Positions 59,104-64,000 of a stretch of DNA of 64,000 bases are shown here, one piece after another (the first letter of the stretch is position 1; the number at the start of each line of letters is the position of its first letter). Under the pieces are notes generated by a model, which was not told the origin of the DNA, ran no database searches, and saw nothing but the letters and a program-made list of their open reading frames with translations. The stretch is from Escherichia phage JLBYU40. The stretch is from the sequence record NC_105514.1; one strand, written 5' to 3'. Both the position numbers and the translations under genes were made by a program.

Positions 59104-60420
59104 TTATTTACCACGGGAAATAGAGTAAATTCCATAGCGGAGCGCATCACAAAGGTGAGAGTTAGCATCATGACGTGGTTTTTCACGTGATAATTTCTCT
59201 TCACCTTCTTGGAAGTCCCACTTATAGTTCTGCAATGCATGGATTAATGAGGAACATGAAGCATCTACAATAATCTTGCCCTGCTGGAATAGCGCTTGCA
59301 AGCATGCTAGACCATCTAGGACAGATTTTTTAGCTGGAGCCGATGCAATTTCATGCTCATAAGCTAAGTCCTGGCGGAACTGAGCTGCTGCAGAGTCAAC
59401 AAAAATACGATCAACTTTATAACGATCTATACAGTGCTGAATATAAGCAGCATGCTGAGCTGTAGTTTTCTCCGCCTGCTGGTACTCTTCTAATACGTAG
59501 TAAGTATCCGTATCGTAATGATACTTAATAGTAAGAACTGCTGTAGGATCACGATAACCAACGTCAATACCAAGCAACGTTTCGAATGCTTCATCATCTT
59601 TAAAGAAGTGACGCATACCTTTGAGATCTTTAACATGATCGATAGCATTAAAGGTATCAAATATCTGTCCTTCAAATACAGAGAAGTCAGCCTCGTATTC
59701 TTGGCGGAAATAGTTTTTACTAACTGTACGACGTGCTTCCTCAATATCATTCAAGTCGGCACGTGGGTTATCACGATATGTACCATGAATAGATACCCAG
59801 TTAGGCAACGTATCATCAAATCCGTAGGCGTAAAACTCTTTAAACCAGTTACCTCCACGAGGGGTAGAAATAAATAGAGCCTTAGAATTAGGTTTATCTA
59901 GAGTAGGACGCAGCTGAACCCTGAAGGCATCACCACCCACATCAGAAATTGCCGCCTCGTCAAAAATGATAAAGTCATATGAACGTCCAACCGCGGAGTC
60001 AGCCTGAGCCGCGGAAGCTAGTTTAAATAGAGAACCATTAGCTAACTCAATCTCTTTATCTTTAGCGTTTTCACGTTCGGTTTGTAGGCCGTACTTCTTA
60101 ATAAGGCCACGAATCTGAGACCATCCGATATTGGCCAGTGAGTAGTTAGGGGCAACTACTAGTACCTTCACATTAGGTTCCAGCAATTTTAGGAACCCAA
60201 GTGTATACGCTATAAAAGATTTACCTACACGACGTGATACACACGCCGTTACAAAACGGTGTCTAGGGTCTTCTAGGGCATTAATAATTGCTATTTGAGG
60301 GCCATTAGGCGTGATACCCTCTTGTGCTAGTATTCCGGAAACAGGTAGACGAAAGAAACGTTTGTCTATTCCGAAATCAATAACATCTACTGTGTTAACA
60401 TAGGGTCTTGACACTTCCAT
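59104..60420 (-). CDS. Terminase large subunit
   Basis: Walker A VSRRVGKS, Walker B FIIFDEAA, nuclease motif GIDVG. Confidence 0.9.
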   Translation of the reverse strand: MEVSRPYVNTVDVIDFGIDKRFFRLPVSGILAQEGITPNGPQIAIINALEDPRHRFVTACVSRRVGKSFIAYTLGFLKLLEPNVKVLVVAPNYSLANIGWSQIRGLIKKYGLQTERENAKDKEIELANGSLFKLASAAQADSAVGRSYDFIIFDEAAISDVGGDAFRVQLRPTLDKPNSKALFISTPRGGNWFKEFYAYGFDDTLPNWVSIHGTYRDNPRADLNDIEEARRTVSKNYFRQEYEADFSVFEGQIFDTFNAIDHVKDLKGMRHFFKDDEAFETLLGIDVGYRDPTAVLTIKYHYDTDTYYVLEEYQQAEKTTAQHAAYIQHCIDRYKVDRIFVDSAAAQFRQDLAYEHEIASAPAKKSVLDGLACLQALFQQGKIIVDASCSSLIHALQNYKWDFQEGEEKLSREKPRHDANSHLCDALRYGIYSISRGK

Positions 60421-60902
60421 TACTTCTTACCTCCAGTAGCTAGGGAAGTAATTAAGTCCATGTAGTTTTGATCCCCAGCTCCAGCAATAATGTTATTCTG
60501 GATATTAGTCTGATTAGCGGGAGCACGGACAGCAGCTTTAGCTTTCTCTAACTCTACCATCATCTTCATTTCTTCCATCTTCATTTTGTGTGCCTTCCAG
60601 AGAATATCCATAATATCTTGGTCAGAACCCATGCCAGTTTCTTCTAGCTCTTCTAGCTTACGCTTAATAACTTCATCTAGAACACCAAATAAACGATCTC
60701 TATTACGGAATCCACTCTCCATAAAAATATCATTTAAGTAGTTTTTAACTTCGCTACGATTCATAATATCTCGGAAAGCAATTTCAGACATTCCAAGACT
60801 ACGTGCTGCGGCAGGGACATCACTACCGCATTGCAGATACGCTTCAATCACATCCATCCCTTCAGGGGACATAAGATCTGGTACTAATACATCATTTGCC
60901 AT
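60420..60902 (-). CDS. Terminase small subunit (putative)
   Basis: 160 aa with HTH-like [16 protein letters not shown] and coiled-coil C-terminus; immediately upstream of the large subunit. Confidence 0.55.
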
Positions 60903-60912
60903 ATTTCCTCCT

Positions 60913-62670
60913 TTAGGTAAGGCGTTGAACTGTTACTCTTAATCTAGGCAGGAAAACTGCGCTACCCAAACTCACGTGCATAACTACTCCTAACTCTACG
61001 TTTCCGTTTCCTAGATTTTTAACAGTATATATAAAACTGTTTCTACTTAGAGCATTATTAGGCGTGTATCTAAAAGCAGATGTAGTATGAAAAGGTACTA
61101 GATAGCCCACAGGTAGCGTTAAAATTTGGTGGAATATTGCATCCCCTCCGCTATAGTTATATGCTCTTCTTCCTTGCACTTGAAACACCCCATTATTCCA
61201 TGTATTAGCTGGAACACCCGCACAATTAAGATTACCTGATATAACTTCAGTAGTAAGAATTACTGTAGCATTTCCGCCTGGTATACCTAGCCCAATAGTT
61301 GATAAACCAACGTATCTATCACCCGTTCCTGGGTAGCTAGGAGTAATATCATCTCCCATATAAGAACTACCTACATTTCCACCAAAAAGTCGCAGTGGAA
61401 CTGCTGATGGTCCCCAAACAACCCCATGCTCATTACCAATAGTATTATCGTTAGAGTTTACATACCACTGTTTACCTACTCCGAACTTATAAATGCTAAT
61501 CTGTGATTTAGCTCCACCATAGTCTACAGGAGACCATAATCCTCCATTACTAGACCCTACAAGTTCACACCTTGCAGTAGTATCCCCAAAAACTCCAGTG
61601 TACGCTGCGTTATTTCCGATGAATTCCATATCAGGACGATAACCTAAGTTACCAAAAGCATTCTGATTAATAAATTTATACCCGGTATTAGGGAGACTTA
61701 CCCCTTTAATTATGAAATTAGAAGGAGATATAAGAATATCAGAACCAGTAAAGGGATTACCTGAAATACTCATTACACCATTCGAATACCTTAAATTAAG
61801 AACATACCAAATAACCTTAGTAGGAGTTATATTATACCAATCCTGTAGTATTGTAGAGTCACCCGACTGGTTAGCTAGATTAGTAGTAGATCCCCTACAA
61901 ACAAATCTGTTCCCGCCGTCGTGGTACATAGTATTTACATTACCTGGGAGCCCTTGTCTAACTCCACCATATCCACGTATATTAGAATTGCAGACATAAA
62001 ACCAATCATGCCCTCTATGTGCTGCTCCTAGGGGCGACATCCATCCAGGATCCCAATAGTACGGGTTATTGCCATCTACAGGTACTGTGCTACTATTAGT
62101 AGGAAAACCTAATTGTGCAAAGGCTTCTGCAACAGTAACACCTACAGGAGCTCCCGCACCGGGCCTAACTATACCGTGGTAGGTACTATGTAACGTAGTA
62201 CCACCTGTGCCACTCCTAGAGATAGATTCTTCGTGCCCTATCGAGGGGTTATAATTATAAGTTCCAGATGCGAGGCTGTTACCAAATGCAAATCCACTGG
62301 TTTGAGAAACACTAGCAAAAGATCTAAAGGGATCAGCTTGAGTGGCAACTATAGTTTGACCAACTTTACTCTGAGTACCATTAAGAAAAGCTCTGTGAGT
62401 ACCATTAATTTCAATAGCAGTTAGTATAACTCTACCTGGGTCGTTGGATTTAATATTTATTATGTCAGAGGGCATCTGACATACAAAAAACCCATTCCCG
62501 GCATCACCTAATCCTGCCTCATAAGTACCATCAACTAGGACAAATGGCATATCACTATGAAAAATACTGTTGGCATTTGGACTATAGTGACGATTAATGT
62601 CACCCCCAGATTCAGTATTTAAAGATAGTACGGTCTTACCATCGCTATACTTTCCAGCGAAAAAACCCAT
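60913..62670 (-). CDS. Receptor-binding tail protein (pb5-like)
   Basis: 585 aa; divergent from the Llp-like lipoprotein gene, as in T5-like phages. Confidence 0.6.
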
Positions 62671-62695
62671 ATAATCTCCTATTATAAAAATGTAT

Positions 62696-62724
62696 TTGCT
62701 TTCATCCCTCTATTTTGCTATAAT
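62696..62724 (+). promoter_or_regulatory. Early-type promoter TTGCTT-N17-TATAAT for llp
   Basis: tatttgctttcatccctctattttgctataat. Confidence 0.7.
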
Positions 62725-62755
62725 ATATTCATAAAATAGAAATGGAGAGATAAAT

Positions 62756-63022
62756 ATGAAAAAGTTTGTAATTGCACTAGTTGCCACAGTTATGTTATCT
62801 GGTTGTGCACCTGCTCCCAAACCATTTTGTACGGGATTTGTAAAATCTTTTGGTGGTGCGGGAGAAGAACATTACGGTCTCAAGGTTCAAAAAGTTCGTA
62901 TTAAGGGAGATCGCTTTCCAGTAGTACAGCTCCGTACTAAGTTTGGGTGGTGGGATCTCAGTCAGTTTGACCTTAAATATGGTGATTGTAAATTTAAACT
63001 AGAGCAATCTAATTACTTGTAA
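62756..63022 (+). CDS. llp: Llp-like lipoprotein (receptor-blocking superinfection exclusion)
   Basis: Signal peptide plus lipobox LSGC (MKKFVIALVATVMLSGC), small Cys-containing mature domain, divergent from the receptor-binding gene. Confidence 0.65.
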   Translation: MKKFVIALVATVMLSGCAPAPKPFCTGFVKSFGGAGEEHYGLKVQKVRIKGDRFPVVQLRTKFGWWDLSQFDLKYGDCKFKLEQSNYL

Positions 63023-63198
63023 TTAGTATAAAGCAAAAAGACATCCAAGTAAACTAAATTTTTTATTTCTTGGACGGTATACTGGCAGAAAACACTATAT
63101 AAGAAAAGTAGAAGTCCTTCTAGGAGTTCACGGGCATGTTTGGTTATGCCCAAATTATAAAATATTTCAAAAATCACATTTATAGGAGCATGAAAGAT

Positions 63199-63327
63199 AT
63201 GTCAAACAAAAGAAAGAGCAGACGCGGAGAGGTGTATGATAGCTGGATTAATAGTTTTGGGTTCGGAACTATCCTATTCTTTATTTTCGTAGGTTTTTGG
63301 TTAGCAGCTATGGCGGGGTGGATTTAA
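63199..63327 (+). CDS. Small single-pass membrane protein (42 aa)
   Basis: Basic N-terminus then TM helix FGFGTILFFIFVGFWLAAMAGWI; ATG 63199 after AGGAG. Confidence 0.35.
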   Translation: MSNKRKSRRGEVYDSWINSFGFGTILFFIFVGFWLAAMAGWI

Positions 63328-63434
63328 TGGAATGGGTAATTATTGCATTACTAGGGATTGTGATTATCGGGCAATGTATTTTAGATAATCACTTAGCTAG
63401 AATTGAAACTTTATTACTGGAGAAGCGTAAATGA
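63327..63434 (+). CDS. Small single-pass membrane protein (35 aa; not in the ORF track)
   Basis: MEWVIIALLGIVIIGQCILDNHLARIETLLLEKRK; TAATG coupling to the previous ORF. Confidence 0.3.
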   Translation: MEWVIIALLGIVIIGQCILDNHLARIETLLLEKRK

Positions 63435-63625
63435 TGGAAGTAGTAGCTACATTAATAATAATACTAGTCTGGGCAACTTTCATTGTTTCTTATAACGCGT
63501 ATGTTCGCCTAAAAACTCTAGAAGCCCGGGTAAAACAACAACAATTTGCCATAGAAAAACTAGTAGAATTGCAACGTTGTGATAGTACCCGTATTCTGCA
63601 AATTGAGAGGGAATTAGATGTTTAG
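63431..63625 (+). CDS. Small membrane protein with coiled-coil tail (64 aa)
   Basis: TM helix VVATLIIILVWATFIV then heptad-like region; start overlaps the previous stop (TGATG). Confidence 0.4.
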   Translation: MMEVVATLIIILVWATFIVSYNAYVRLKTLEARVKQQQFAIEKLVELQRCDSTRILQIERELDV

Positions 63626-63863
63626 TATTATAGTTGCTTTTATTATCGGGGTAACCGCGGGAGTTTTCGGGACAACTGCGGCAATTAACAAGCATCGGGA
63701 ATATATCGCGGGGGTGACGCGGGAGATTGCGGAAAGGGAGCGGAAGTTTGACGAGAAACGTGCGGAGTTTGAGCGGGAGTGGTCGGATGGATCTCGGGCG
63801 TCGCGGAAGAGATTCCGTGAGTTCAGGCCAGAACACAGGTTTGATGACCCTTCTATGCGCTAA
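63618..63863 (+). CDS. Small membrane protein with Arg/Glu-rich tail (81 aa); 3' two-thirds GC-rich
   Basis: TM helix FSIIVAFIIGVTAGVFGTTAAI; codon usage switches to CGG/GCG/ACG-rich after about 63650. Confidence 0.35.
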   Translation: MFSIIVAFIIGVTAGVFGTTAAINKHREYIAGVTREIAERERKFDEKRAEFEREWSDGSRASRKRFREFRPEHRFDDPSMR

Positions 63864-64000
63864 TTTGACTTTTGCCAATTTCTTTGGATTACGTACGCGT
63901 GGGTGTGTCCAGTGGCCTCTCAGATGAGAATGAGTCTCATTACCGCCCGGTACTTAGCAGGCTAATAGTCACGGCATGTTATCATTACACACCGTGACTA

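Follow-up and report, generated by a model that had tools for sequence, protein, structure and literature searches.

T4 Imm, HK97 gp15 and P22 SieA are small, non-essential inner-membrane proteins of superinfection exclusion, and proteins of this type adjoin, or are co-expressed with, other exclusion functions. In the classic model phage T5, annotation of four small genes between llp and the right terminal repeat dates back to 1994, yet they still lack an assigned function; each product already carries the annotation "contains single transmembrane domain". We analyzed the corresponding genes, ORF1 to ORF4, in a window of 64,000 nucleotides from Escherichia phage JLBYU40 (NC_105514.1), the window being the whole stretch of DNA under study. 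These genes are already known: they are orf1 to orf4 of GenBank X75922 and T5.159 to T5.162 of NC_005859, with the same order, lengths, overlaps, coupled junctions and position as in T5 and identities of 98%, 94%, 83% and 86%, respectively. The T5 llp/oad cassette is of the FhuA type, whereas that of the window is of the BF23 (BtuB) type. Overall, the set is unremarkable, consisting of hypothetical membrane-protein genes that were annotated before, and the value of the present check is that the genes are real, that the start of ORF1 is corrected and that misleading names such as "tail assembly protein" are removed.

All four genes are on the + strand: ORF1 (63199 to 63327, 42 aa; T5.159, orf1), ORF2 (63327 to 63434, 35 aa; T5.160, orf2), ORF3 (63431 to 63625, 64 aa; T5.161, orf3) and ORF4 (63618 to 63863, 81 aa; T5.162, orf4, named "membrane protein"). 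Successive junctions overlap by 1, 4 and 8 nt (TAATG, ATGA and ATGTTTAG), and an SD-like sequence stands 5' of each start, AGGAG for ORF1, GGGGTGG for ORF2, GGAG for ORF3 and GAGGGA for ORF4. The first-pass annotation had described four consecutive, translationally coupled ORFs of these lengths, and the overlaps and separate SDs bear this out. Its region began at 63136, however, where an ATG opens a 63-aa extended version of ORF1. This upstream start is present in the window, unlike in T5, and is not conserved, because the position reads ACG in some relatives and the ATG is followed by in-frame stops in others. The conserved start of ORF1 is the ATG at 63199, with its AGGAG at 63184 to 63188, and the profile of PHROG 8596, the ORF1 family, has 42 positions, matching this start. 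ORF1 to ORF4 are genuine, translationally coupled genes for small membrane proteins.

All four ORFs are under purifying selection. Across 28 related loci, in-frame dN/dS is 0.12 for ORF1, 0.12 for ORF2, 0.27 for ORF3 and 0.25 for ORF4 (the last computed over codons 1 to 66), the in-frame value lying below every other frame; the other five frames give 0.23 to 2.65, with the minimum coming from an antisense frame that shares wobble positions. A minus-strand ORF of 132 aa (63480 to 63878) and a + strand ORF of 66 aa (63727 to 63927) were also considered as coding, but their frames give a dN/dS of about 0.9 to 1.0, on which grounds both were rejected.

Gene order and the 1-, 4- and 8-nt overlaps are identical in the 26 related loci that have all four genes and no insertions. 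IrmaTschudi and Lindwurm have lost ORF3, and at such loci a 1-nt overlap connects ORF2 directly to ORF4. ORF4 is truncated at one related locus (L016) and has lost half of its TM helix at another (L021), and its C-terminal tail occurs in several alternative versions among relatives. ORF3 is the most variable of the four, with 42 to 44% identity in Epseptimavirus. A 51-aa paralog adjoins ORF2 in HildyBeyeler and at a further locus (L023), where the paralogy is clear; for ORF2 and ORF3, hhalign gives a probability of 23%, too low to establish paralogy.

The first-pass annotation had proposed abandoning the genes if no relative conserved them, and in fact they are kept in 445 phage records, all T5-like (Markadamsvirinae). 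The set is retained in essentially every T5-like genome of Markadamsvirinae. When the ORF4 profile was compared to 1.84 billion representative proteins, the 5 matches all belonged to the same family, with no outside relatives, and a search of 5.8 billion proteins with ORF3 and ORF4 yielded nothing beyond proteins of T5-like phages or contigs some 105 to 120 kb long. A tblastn search of a phage collection with ORF4 gave nothing credible beyond Markadamsvirinae, and ORFs of this kind are absent from the equivalent position in Proteus Novosibvirus and Vibrio phi 3.

Each protein consists in essence of one TM helix, to which some add a second helix. The best 19-residue Kyte-Doolittle means are 2.13, 2.33, 2.46 and 2.16 for ORF1 to ORF4, a range of 2.13 to 2.46 that agrees with the one hydrophobic helix per ORF noted at first pass. 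As a crude baseline, 11 of the 115 ATG-initiated ORFs of 35 to 90 aa counted across all six reading frames of the window (9.6%) reach 2.1, and four in a row would therefore be expected with a frequency of about 1e-4. ORF1 has a basic N terminus (MSNKRKSRRGEVY) followed by a C-terminal TM helix, its 2.13 maximum falling at residues 24 to 42 with five Lys or Arg residues before the helix and none after it. ORF2 begins with its TM helix (MEWVIIALLGIVIIGQCIL) and continues into a short amphipathic basic tail. ORF3 has an N-terminal TM helix and then a heptad-repeat coiled-coil helix, and ORF4 has an N-terminal TM helix, a charged helix rich in Glu, Arg and Lys and a variable, basic, disordered tail. 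Residues 25 to 66 of ORF4 are 55% charged, and an Ile/Phe stripe recurs along the charged helix every 7 residues. In AlphaFold2 models, ORF3 is a single helix spanning residues 2 to 63 (pLDDT 87) and ORF4 a single helix spanning residues 2 to 69 plus a disordered tail (pLDDT 76).

The charge distribution allows orientations to be predicted. ORF1 would be tail anchored, with its basic N terminus in the cytoplasm. In ORF2 to ORF4 the N-terminal tip is acidic or uncharged and basic residues follow just past the helix, and an N-out/C-in topology with cytoplasmic helical tails is therefore predicted; the ORF3 and ORF4 homologues of Sw2 are independently annotated as "Transmembrane Domain N out C in". 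We infer that all four proteins insert into the inner membrane. None has a lipobox, the only one here being that of the upstream llp.

The first-pass annotation had set these ORFs downstream of a receptor-blocking lipoprotein gene, with no enzyme-like partner, and both statements stand. The lipoprotein gene, llp (62756 to 63022, + strand), encodes an 88-aa protein of the BF23/BtuB type with the lipobox LSGC and Cys17; it matches PHROG 1119 (E=1e-25) and Pfam LPAM_1 (E=4.6e-5) and is 97 to 100% identical to llp of the BF23-type relatives that carry it. A probable early-type promoter lies upstream at 62696 to 62724 on the + strand, with a -35 element TTGCTT (62696 to 62701), a 17-nt spacer and a -10 element TATAAT (62719 to 62724). 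It was read directly from the sequence, and its position agrees with that given for the llp promoter in the X75922 and NC_005859 annotations; it was not picked up by our consensus scan, since TTGCTT agrees with TTGACA at only 3 of 6 positions. Promoter and terminator scans gave nothing above shuffle expectation, with no terminator-like site on the + strand in 62500 to 64000 and no convincing terminator between llp and ORF1, and Rfam has no match in 62600 to 64000. The llp gene is probably the first gene of the transcription unit, with transcripts from its promoter probably reading through into ORF1 to ORF4. In BF23, a further promoter is predicted to lie between llp and ORF1.

The four ORFs are 83 to 98% identical beside non-homologous llp/oad cassettes of the T5 and BF23 types, are equally conserved beside the T5 (FhuA-type) and BF23 (BtuB-type) llp and occur irrespective of the receptor and llp type of the phage. 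Adjacency, the sole basis for a functional tie to llp, is weak evidence, because in Sugarlandvirus and My1 the analogues in this location lack a lipoprotein neighbor. A superinfection-exclusion or host-interaction role, as was suggested at first pass, is nevertheless plausible.

Family searches place each protein with its T5 counterparts. The matches cover whole profiles, PHROG 8596 for ORF1 (E=9.5e-32, 42 positions), PHROG 6369 for ORF2 (E=1.7e-25, 35 positions), PHROG 5851 for ORF3 (E=2.7e-34, 64 positions) and PHROG 6447 for ORF4 (E=2e-46, 81 positions); three of these families are of unknown function, and the fourth is named only "membrane protein". Beyond them, Pfam, NCBIfam, PADLOC and PHROGs gave sub-threshold hits to LapA_dom, FtsL and DUF6450 only, which we regard as likeness of architecture type. 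No annotated exclusion family in PHROGs, Pfam, NCBIfam or PADLOC was matched, and PADLOC-DB had no match at E<=1. We found no published text on T5.159 to T5.162 and no published exclusion test of these genes, and papers on BF23, DT57C, the Llp structure, phiR2-01 and AKFV33 held nothing useful on them.

The genes are dispensable for laboratory growth, as shown by a knock-down screen and by their natural loss or truncation in relatives. In the CRISPRi-ART screen of T5, T5.159 to T5.162 all scored "Not Fit", as did the known structural genes ltf and N4, so the sensitivity of the T5 screen is limited (PMC11879866 supplement). Non-essentiality is compatible with any accessory role.

We tentatively propose that ORF1 to ORF4 act at the inner membrane on DNA entry, through resealing or exclusion. 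No further + strand gene stands between this set and the right terminal repeat, and the four would be the last unique part of the genome to enter. Homo- or hetero-oligomers of the four proteins in the inner membrane might act at the DNA-entry step once the whole genome is inside, resealing or occupying the entry route. Such a function would add a receptor-independent, inner-membrane exclusion layer to the outer-membrane block imposed by Llp, and would matter under competition rather than in single infections. Arguing against it, the predicted location of the soluble parts is the cytoplasm, hardly the side from which incoming DNA would most obviously be blocked, and neither experiment nor homology supports a link to exclusion or DNA entry.

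A more specific version, which joins these elements and which we consider unlikely, has ORF1 to ORF4 forming one hetero-oligomeric inner-membrane complex and, separately, a GC-rich segment of ORF4 serving as a cis-acting DNA site. The complex would be made only after the last-entering genome end is inside the cell and would close or occupy the DNA-entry channel of the tape-measure protein (pb2), resealing the membrane. Every other T5-like phage would then be excluded, regardless of its outer-membrane receptor. This would amount to a second, receptor-independent layer of lytic conversion, for which Sugarlandvirus and My1 may have positional analogues, and the cis site in ORF4 would be linked to how the terminal repeat, about 140 bp downstream, is formed.

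The closest rival to the DNA-entry proposal is that the four proteins bind a host membrane machine and tune physiology or counter defense, with no part in exclusion, the proposed targets being the divisome, FtsH/LapB control of LPS, a transporter or a membrane-bound defense effector. We regard this as possible but doubtful. The peptides resemble small bitopic inner-membrane adaptors (ZipA, YhcB/LapD, LapA and FtsL-like architectures), in which an N-terminal TM helix is followed by a cytoplasmic charged or coiled-coil helix. Conservation is very strong (dN/dS 0.12) in the cytoplasmic N terminus of ORF1 and in the GQCILDNHLARIE motif of ORF2, a pattern that a specific binding partner would be expected to impose, and non-essentiality in E. 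coli K-12 suits a conditional, host-dependent role. The family signal for ORF4, to LapA_dom (E=1e-3, 19.3 bits) and FtsL_COG5462 (E=0.017), is sub-threshold, however; all such matches fall under curated thresholds and come from generic TM-plus-helix composition. The lack of a PADLOC match and of relatives beyond T5-like phages among the 1.84 billion representative proteins also counts against host modulation, and no target can be named. If either the DNA-entry proposal or action on a host membrane machine is correct, a gap in our picture of two-step injection and lytic conversion in T5 would be filled, and the genes could matter for the design of phage cocktails, in which T5-like phages that use different receptors are in competition.

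Lysis-timing accessories, that is, holin- or antiholin-like proteins adjusting the firing of the T5 holin, are unlikely. Small size, one TM helix and, in ORF4, a highly charged cytoplasmic C terminus fit holins and antiholins in a generic way, and accessory status suits a timing regulator. Yet the holin, endolysin and Rz-like spanins of T5-like phages are annotated together in another region (PMC11664485; PMC3326045), while the neighbors of ORF1 to ORF4 are llp and the terminal repeat and their early-type promoter is probably shared with llp. No holin or antiholin family in PHROGs or Pfam was matched (E<=0.1 to 1).

It is very improbable that the ORFs are incidental and that the region is retained for a function of the DNA itself close to the boundary of the terminal repeat, for example as a signal for packaging or cleavage or as a target of homing endonucleases. 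What such a view does account for is the segment at ORF4 codons 34 to 66 (63717 to 63815, + strand), which is GC rich and G skewed, with rare codons and suppressed synonymous divergence. Over most of it, 120-nt sliding windows reach a GC content of 0.57 to 0.58, compared to 0.39 for the whole window; GC3 is atypical (0.65 in codons 25 to 81, compared to 0.30 in large genes), CGG supplies 6 of the 13 Arg codons of ORF4, compared to 1% in large genes, and GCGG(G/A)AG motifs are repeated. Between the window and Epseptimavirus, dS is 0.07 to 0.42 in this segment and 0.8 to 2.6 in ORF1, ORF2 and ORF4 codons 1 to 33; synonymous divergence between genera is 2- to 14-fold lower here. The terminal repeat begins about 140 bp downstream, and at least 3 types of HNH endonuclease gene have been inserted directly downstream in relatives. 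Against a purely DNA-level function, protein-level purifying selection is clear in all four ORFs, and outside codons 34 to 66 synonymous sites vary freely, near saturation between genera; DNA-level constraint can therefore account for only about 100 bp of ORF4, superimposed on genuine coding sequence. In 63690 to 63870, neither strand has a stable RNA fold (z of +0.62 and +0.84). The segment is possibly under an overlapping DNA-level constraint, or possibly a co-conversion tract of a homing endonuclease. It adjoins a homing-endonuclease insertion hot spot.

We reject the idea that these are spanin-like or virion proteins, with ORF3 in tail assembly, ORF2 in the tail fiber or ORF3 or ORF4 as an i-spanin equivalent: the TM helix and coiled coil of ORF3 are i-spanin-like and OSYSP, phiLLS, GEC_vB_N3 and UniRef entries use the designations "tail assembly protein" and "tail fiber protein", but these names derive from the phiLLS table, which is unreliable because it misnames dmp ("minor tail protein"), A1 ("baseplate wedge subunit") and pb5 ("super-infection exclusion protein"), no structural family shows any likeness, ORF3 is naturally absent from viable phages, no frame of 63199 to 63863 has a lipobox ORF, llp being the sole adjacent one, and spanins are annotated elsewhere in T5-like phages (PMC11664485).

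Set beside known systems, the i-spanins of the lambda Rz type share an N-terminal TM helix and coiled coil with ORF3 and also with the 74-aa protein of Klebsiella phage KpGranit and My1_149; ORF3 is much shorter and lies outside the lysis cassette without a cognate o-spanin, and its predicted N-out/C-in topology is opposite to the type II orientation of i-spanins. Receptor-blocking lipoproteins such as Cor and Llp have a lipobox, which none of the four proteins possesses. ORF4 is built like LapA (PF06305), FtsL (NF049847) and YhcB/ZipA-type proteins, with one N-terminal TM helix, predicted N-out, and a long charged cytoplasmic helix. It scores 19.3 bits to PF06305, over residues 4 to 43 only, against a gathering threshold of 28, and 14.8 bits to NF049847 against an NCBIfam cut-off of 50, and has no further domains, so the resemblance is one of architecture. 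As for the exclusion proteins Imm, gp15 and SieA, the searches detected no sequence similarity of ORF1 to ORF4 to any annotated exclusion family. Those systems consist of a single protein, whereas here four coupled peptides have soluble parts predicted to be cytoplasmic; the likeness is that ORF1 to ORF4 are also small, non-essential phage proteins of the inner membrane, as predicted, encoded near an exclusion gene.

The nearest positional analogues are the 74-aa and 153-aa ORFs of KpGranit (Sugarlandvirus) and gp149 (103 aa) of Pectobacterium phage My1. They have no llp-type lipoprotein and no counterparts of ORF1 or ORF2, and the 153-aa protein of KpGranit does not match ORF4; profile alignments of ORF3 to the KpGranit and My1 proteins are in register but weak (hhalign probability 43% and 26%). 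Like ORF1 to ORF4, the genes of both phages occupy the slot with no other + strand gene between them and the right terminal repeat, and their products have the same TM-plus-coiled-coil build, an N-terminal TM helix with an acidic tip (MEVV..., MIEAL...) followed by a coiled coil.

Four small single-pass membrane proteins had been proposed in the first-pass annotation downstream of llp, the gene for the receptor-blocking lipoprotein Llp, at 63136-63863. Four small ORFs do exist there on the plus strand with coupled junctions: ORF1 (63199-63327, 42 aa), ORF2 (63327-63434, 35 aa), ORF3 (63431-63625, 64 aa), and ORF4 (63618-63863, 81 aa), arranged head to tail with successive stop/start overlaps of 1, 4, and 8 nt and an SD-like sequence upstream of every start. 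Comparison with related phages shows this order and these overlaps to be common to the 28 related loci gathered from Tequintavirus and Epseptimavirus genomes and IMG/VR contigs, apart from the absence of ORF3 in two of them. Across these loci, in-frame dN/dS is 0.12 for ORF1 and ORF2, 0.27 for ORF3, and 0.25 for ORF4; the other five frames give 0.23 to 2.65, the minimum being that of the antisense frame with common wobble positions. Because order and overlaps are conserved and the in-frame ratios are low, the four are, by these comparative measures, genuine protein-coding genes. Two other ORFs, 63480-63878 on the minus strand and 63727-63927 on the plus strand, were rejected as genes, as dN/dS revealed no purifying selection. 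The first start codon had been misplaced: the ATG at 63136 begins a 63-aa extended ORF, and most relatives have ACG at this codon or stops in the frame. The ATG at 63199 and its AGGAG are conserved, with the Epseptimavirus version longer by two codons only, and ORF1 is thus 42 aa. In all else the earlier observation was correct, and its interpretation as a membrane-targeted host-interaction or superinfection-exclusion module is reasonable but unproven.

The window runs up to the right-hand limit of a T5-like phage's unique region, and 62600-64000 shares 94.7% identity with Escherichia phage chee24 (Tequintavirus) and is matched in 346 phage records. Neighbors of the four genes are the large and small terminase subunits (59104-60902, minus strand), a BF23-type receptor-binding protein of 585 aa (60913-62670, minus strand), and the BF23-type Llp of 88 aa (62756-63022, plus strand; PHROG 1119, E=1e-25, lipobox LSGC). 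The right terminal repeat annotated in chee24 begins at the base aligned with position 64000. A 17-nt imperfect palindrome at 63966-64000 (TAGTCACGGCATGTTAT / ATTACACACCGTGACTA, 82% complementary), whose 3' limit is the exact window end, stops at that aligned position.

A hydrophobic helix in each protein, as previously proposed, is borne out by a 19-residue Kyte-Doolittle mean of 2.1 to 2.5 in all four, a level attained by <10% of comparable ORFs across all six window frames. ORF1 has a strongly basic, highly conserved N terminus, MSNKRKSRRGEVY[DE]SWIN, and a C-terminal transmembrane (TM) helix that forms the very end of the protein; it is predicted to be tail anchored, with its N terminus inside. 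The other three have the TM helix at the N terminus, followed in ORF2 by a 16-residue amphipathic basic tail, in ORF3 by a regular 3-4 heptad pattern, and in ORF4 by an E/R/K helix, 55% charged with Ile/Phe at each seventh residue, and then a basic disordered tail. AlphaFold2 models each contain a single helix, at residues 2-63 in ORF3 (pLDDT 87) and 2-69 in ORF4 (pLDDT 76). Since the N-terminal tips of ORF2 to ORF4 are acidic or uncharged (ME-, MME-/MD-, MFS-) and K/R/H directly follows the helix, an N-out/C-in topology is predicted, as is also stated in the Sw2 annotation; all soluble parts of the four proteins would then face the cytoplasm.

These genes are an already annotated set of hypothetical genes in a model phage. 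They were entered as orf1 to orf4 in GenBank X75922 (T5 llp region) and are T5.159 to T5.162 in the T5 reference genome, each annotated "contains single transmembrane domain." Each is a full-length match to its own PHROG; three of these families (8596, 6369, and 5851) are of unknown function, and the only label on the fourth (6447) is "membrane protein." A literature search found no paper discussing the four genes. In public records (OSYSP, phiLLS, GEC_vB_N3, PS3-1, and UniRef), ORF3 homologues are named "tail assembly protein" and those of ORF2 and ORF4 "tail fiber protein." The source of these names is the phiLLS annotation table, and they carry no weight, as many adjoining genes are mislabelled there.

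A tblastn search located ORF4 in 445 phage records, similar to the 440 records with a dmp ≥80% identical to the T5-like type, and the hosts include Escherichia, Salmonella, Shigella, Citrobacter, Yersinia, and others. Outside the T5-like group, ORF3 and ORF4 had no relative among 5.8 billion proteins, and an ORF4 profile had no match among 1.84 billion representatives. All four genes are present at 83-98% identity in T5 and two related loci (L013 and L018) despite a non-homologous, FhuA-type llp; judged from this comparison, their conservation is independent of the receptor cassette. The set itself varies. ORF3, the most divergent member (42-44% identity in Epseptimavirus), is precisely missing from IrmaTschudi and Lindwurm, in which a 1-nt overlap now links ORF2 directly to ORF4, while ORF4 is cut to 35 aa in locus L016, has lost half of its TM helix in L021, and ends in several versions of its last ~14 residues among relatives. 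An extra 51-aa ORF between ORF1 and ORF2 in HildyBeyeler (L028 1728-1883) and L023 (2742-2897) is clearly paralogous to ORF2 (MEWVII...RLSRIETLLEERK) and has a longer helical insert, which shows the cassette to grow by tandem duplication; ORF2 and ORF3 may themselves be paralogs, a relation left unproven by hhalign (probability, 23%). Some relatives have further acidic soluble ORFs within this plus-strand block, of 104 aa between llp and ORF1 and of 67-71 aa after ORF4 (L007 1285-1599 and 2205-2420, L018 3071-3274, and L027 2044-2253), which the window lacks. In a T5 CRISPRi-ART screen, which missed some structural genes too, T5.159 to T5.162 were all "Not Fit" (PMC11879866). Together, the distribution, receptor independence, variation of the set, and these scores mark a conserved but dispensable accessory cassette.

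Codons 34-66 of ORF4 (63717-63815, plus strand) form a GC-rich, G-skewed, compositionally foreign segment with repeated GCGG(G/A)AG motifs. GC content is 0.57-0.58 in 120-nt sliding windows over most of it, versus 0.39 for the whole window; GC3 is 0.65 over codons 25-81, versus 0.30 in large genes, and CGG accounts for 6/13 Arg codons of ORF4, versus 1% in large genes. RNA folding of the segment yielded no stable fold. Between genera, synonymous sites have diverged 2- to 14-fold less here than in flanking coding sequence (dS between the window and Epseptimavirus, 0.07-0.42 compared to 0.8-2.6 in ORF1, ORF2, and ORF4 codons 1-33). In relatives, HNH homing-endonuclease genes of at least three kinds have inserted into the ORF4 3' end or immediately downstream of it (L016 3393-3890, L021 3342-3839, L023 3349-3903, L026 2017-2490, and L028 2462-3001), a site without such a gene in the window, and these insertions account for the alternative ORF4 tails and the L016 truncation. 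As they lie directly after the segment, homing co-conversion is the simplest explanation of the suppressed synonymous change; an overlapping DNA-level cis-acting site near the terminal-repeat boundary may be an alternative cause.

A good promoter (TTGCTT-17-TATAAT, 62696-62724) lies upstream of llp at the position of the annotated T5 llp promoter, and a scan from llp to the window end found no plus-strand terminator-like site, from which we infer that cotranscription of the four genes with llp is plausible. The only structure in the 176-bp llp-ORF1 spacer is a weak hairpin (63044-63074) that lacks a plus-strand T-run, and an additional promoter is predicted there in the BF23 annotation. On the minus strand at 63030-63074, a hairpin (TCCAAGAAA...TTACTTGGA) followed by TGTCTTTTTGCTTT, not called by the terminator scan because of its 13-nt loop, could stop leftward terminal-repeat transcripts, antisense to ORF1 to ORF4, before llp.

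The best-supported reading is that the four genes form a cassette for early-made small peptides of the inner membrane, which matter under conditions that single laboratory infections do not provide. Tentatively, these peptides might act at the inner membrane on the DNA-entry step, resealing or occupying the entry route, and the resulting exclusion would be receptor independent and complementary to Llp. Consistent with this are a probable transcription unit in common with a proven exclusion gene, independence of receptor type, dispensability, and the last-entering position, which analogues share. Binding to a host membrane machine is the main rival, held with slightly lower confidence; the likeness of ORF4 to LapA and FtsL is sub-threshold and of architecture only. 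A role in lysis timing is unlikely, with no family match and with the genes outside the lysis cassette; in T5-like phages, Rz-like spanins, holin, and endolysin are annotated in another region (PMC11664485, PMC3326045). Spanins were rejected on the opposite predicted topology, the lack of a lipoprotein partner, and the Rz-like spanins annotated elsewhere, virion roles on unreliable names and viable phages without ORF3, and a purely DNA-level explanation on clear protein-level selection.

In other lineages, the comparison covered the last plus-strand genes before the right terminal repeat. Proteus phage VTCCBPA139 (Novosibvirus) and Vibrio phage phi 3 (Ermolyevavirinae) have no such ORFs at this slot; directly before its right terminal-repeat boundary, phi 3 has a ~136-bp tandem duplication (L030 8144-8390) visible as two near-identical short ORFs (…QVITSLITASTRNR.YLAPITFSRIFKKFYVRVGL). 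Klebsiella phage KpGranit (Sugarlandvirus; L029 5872-6560) encodes a 74-aa TM and coiled-coil protein (MEVVIGALVLL...), present in ~80 Klebsiella phage records, and a 153-aa protein with a TM helix, charged helix, and Ser-rich tail, and Pectobacterium phage My1 (Mccorquodalevirinae; L031 4701-5012) encodes a 103-aa TM and coiled-coil protein; neither phage has an llp-type lipoprotein at the slot. The KpGranit and My1 ORFs share the acidic N-terminal tip, and profile alignments to ORF3 are in register and weak for the 74-aa (probability, 43%) and 103-aa (26%) proteins, with no match between the 153-aa protein and ORF4. Given these presences and absences, a gene for a TM helix and cytoplasmic coiled coil at the last-entering end of the unique region is not universal, needs no llp, and recurs in three lineages.
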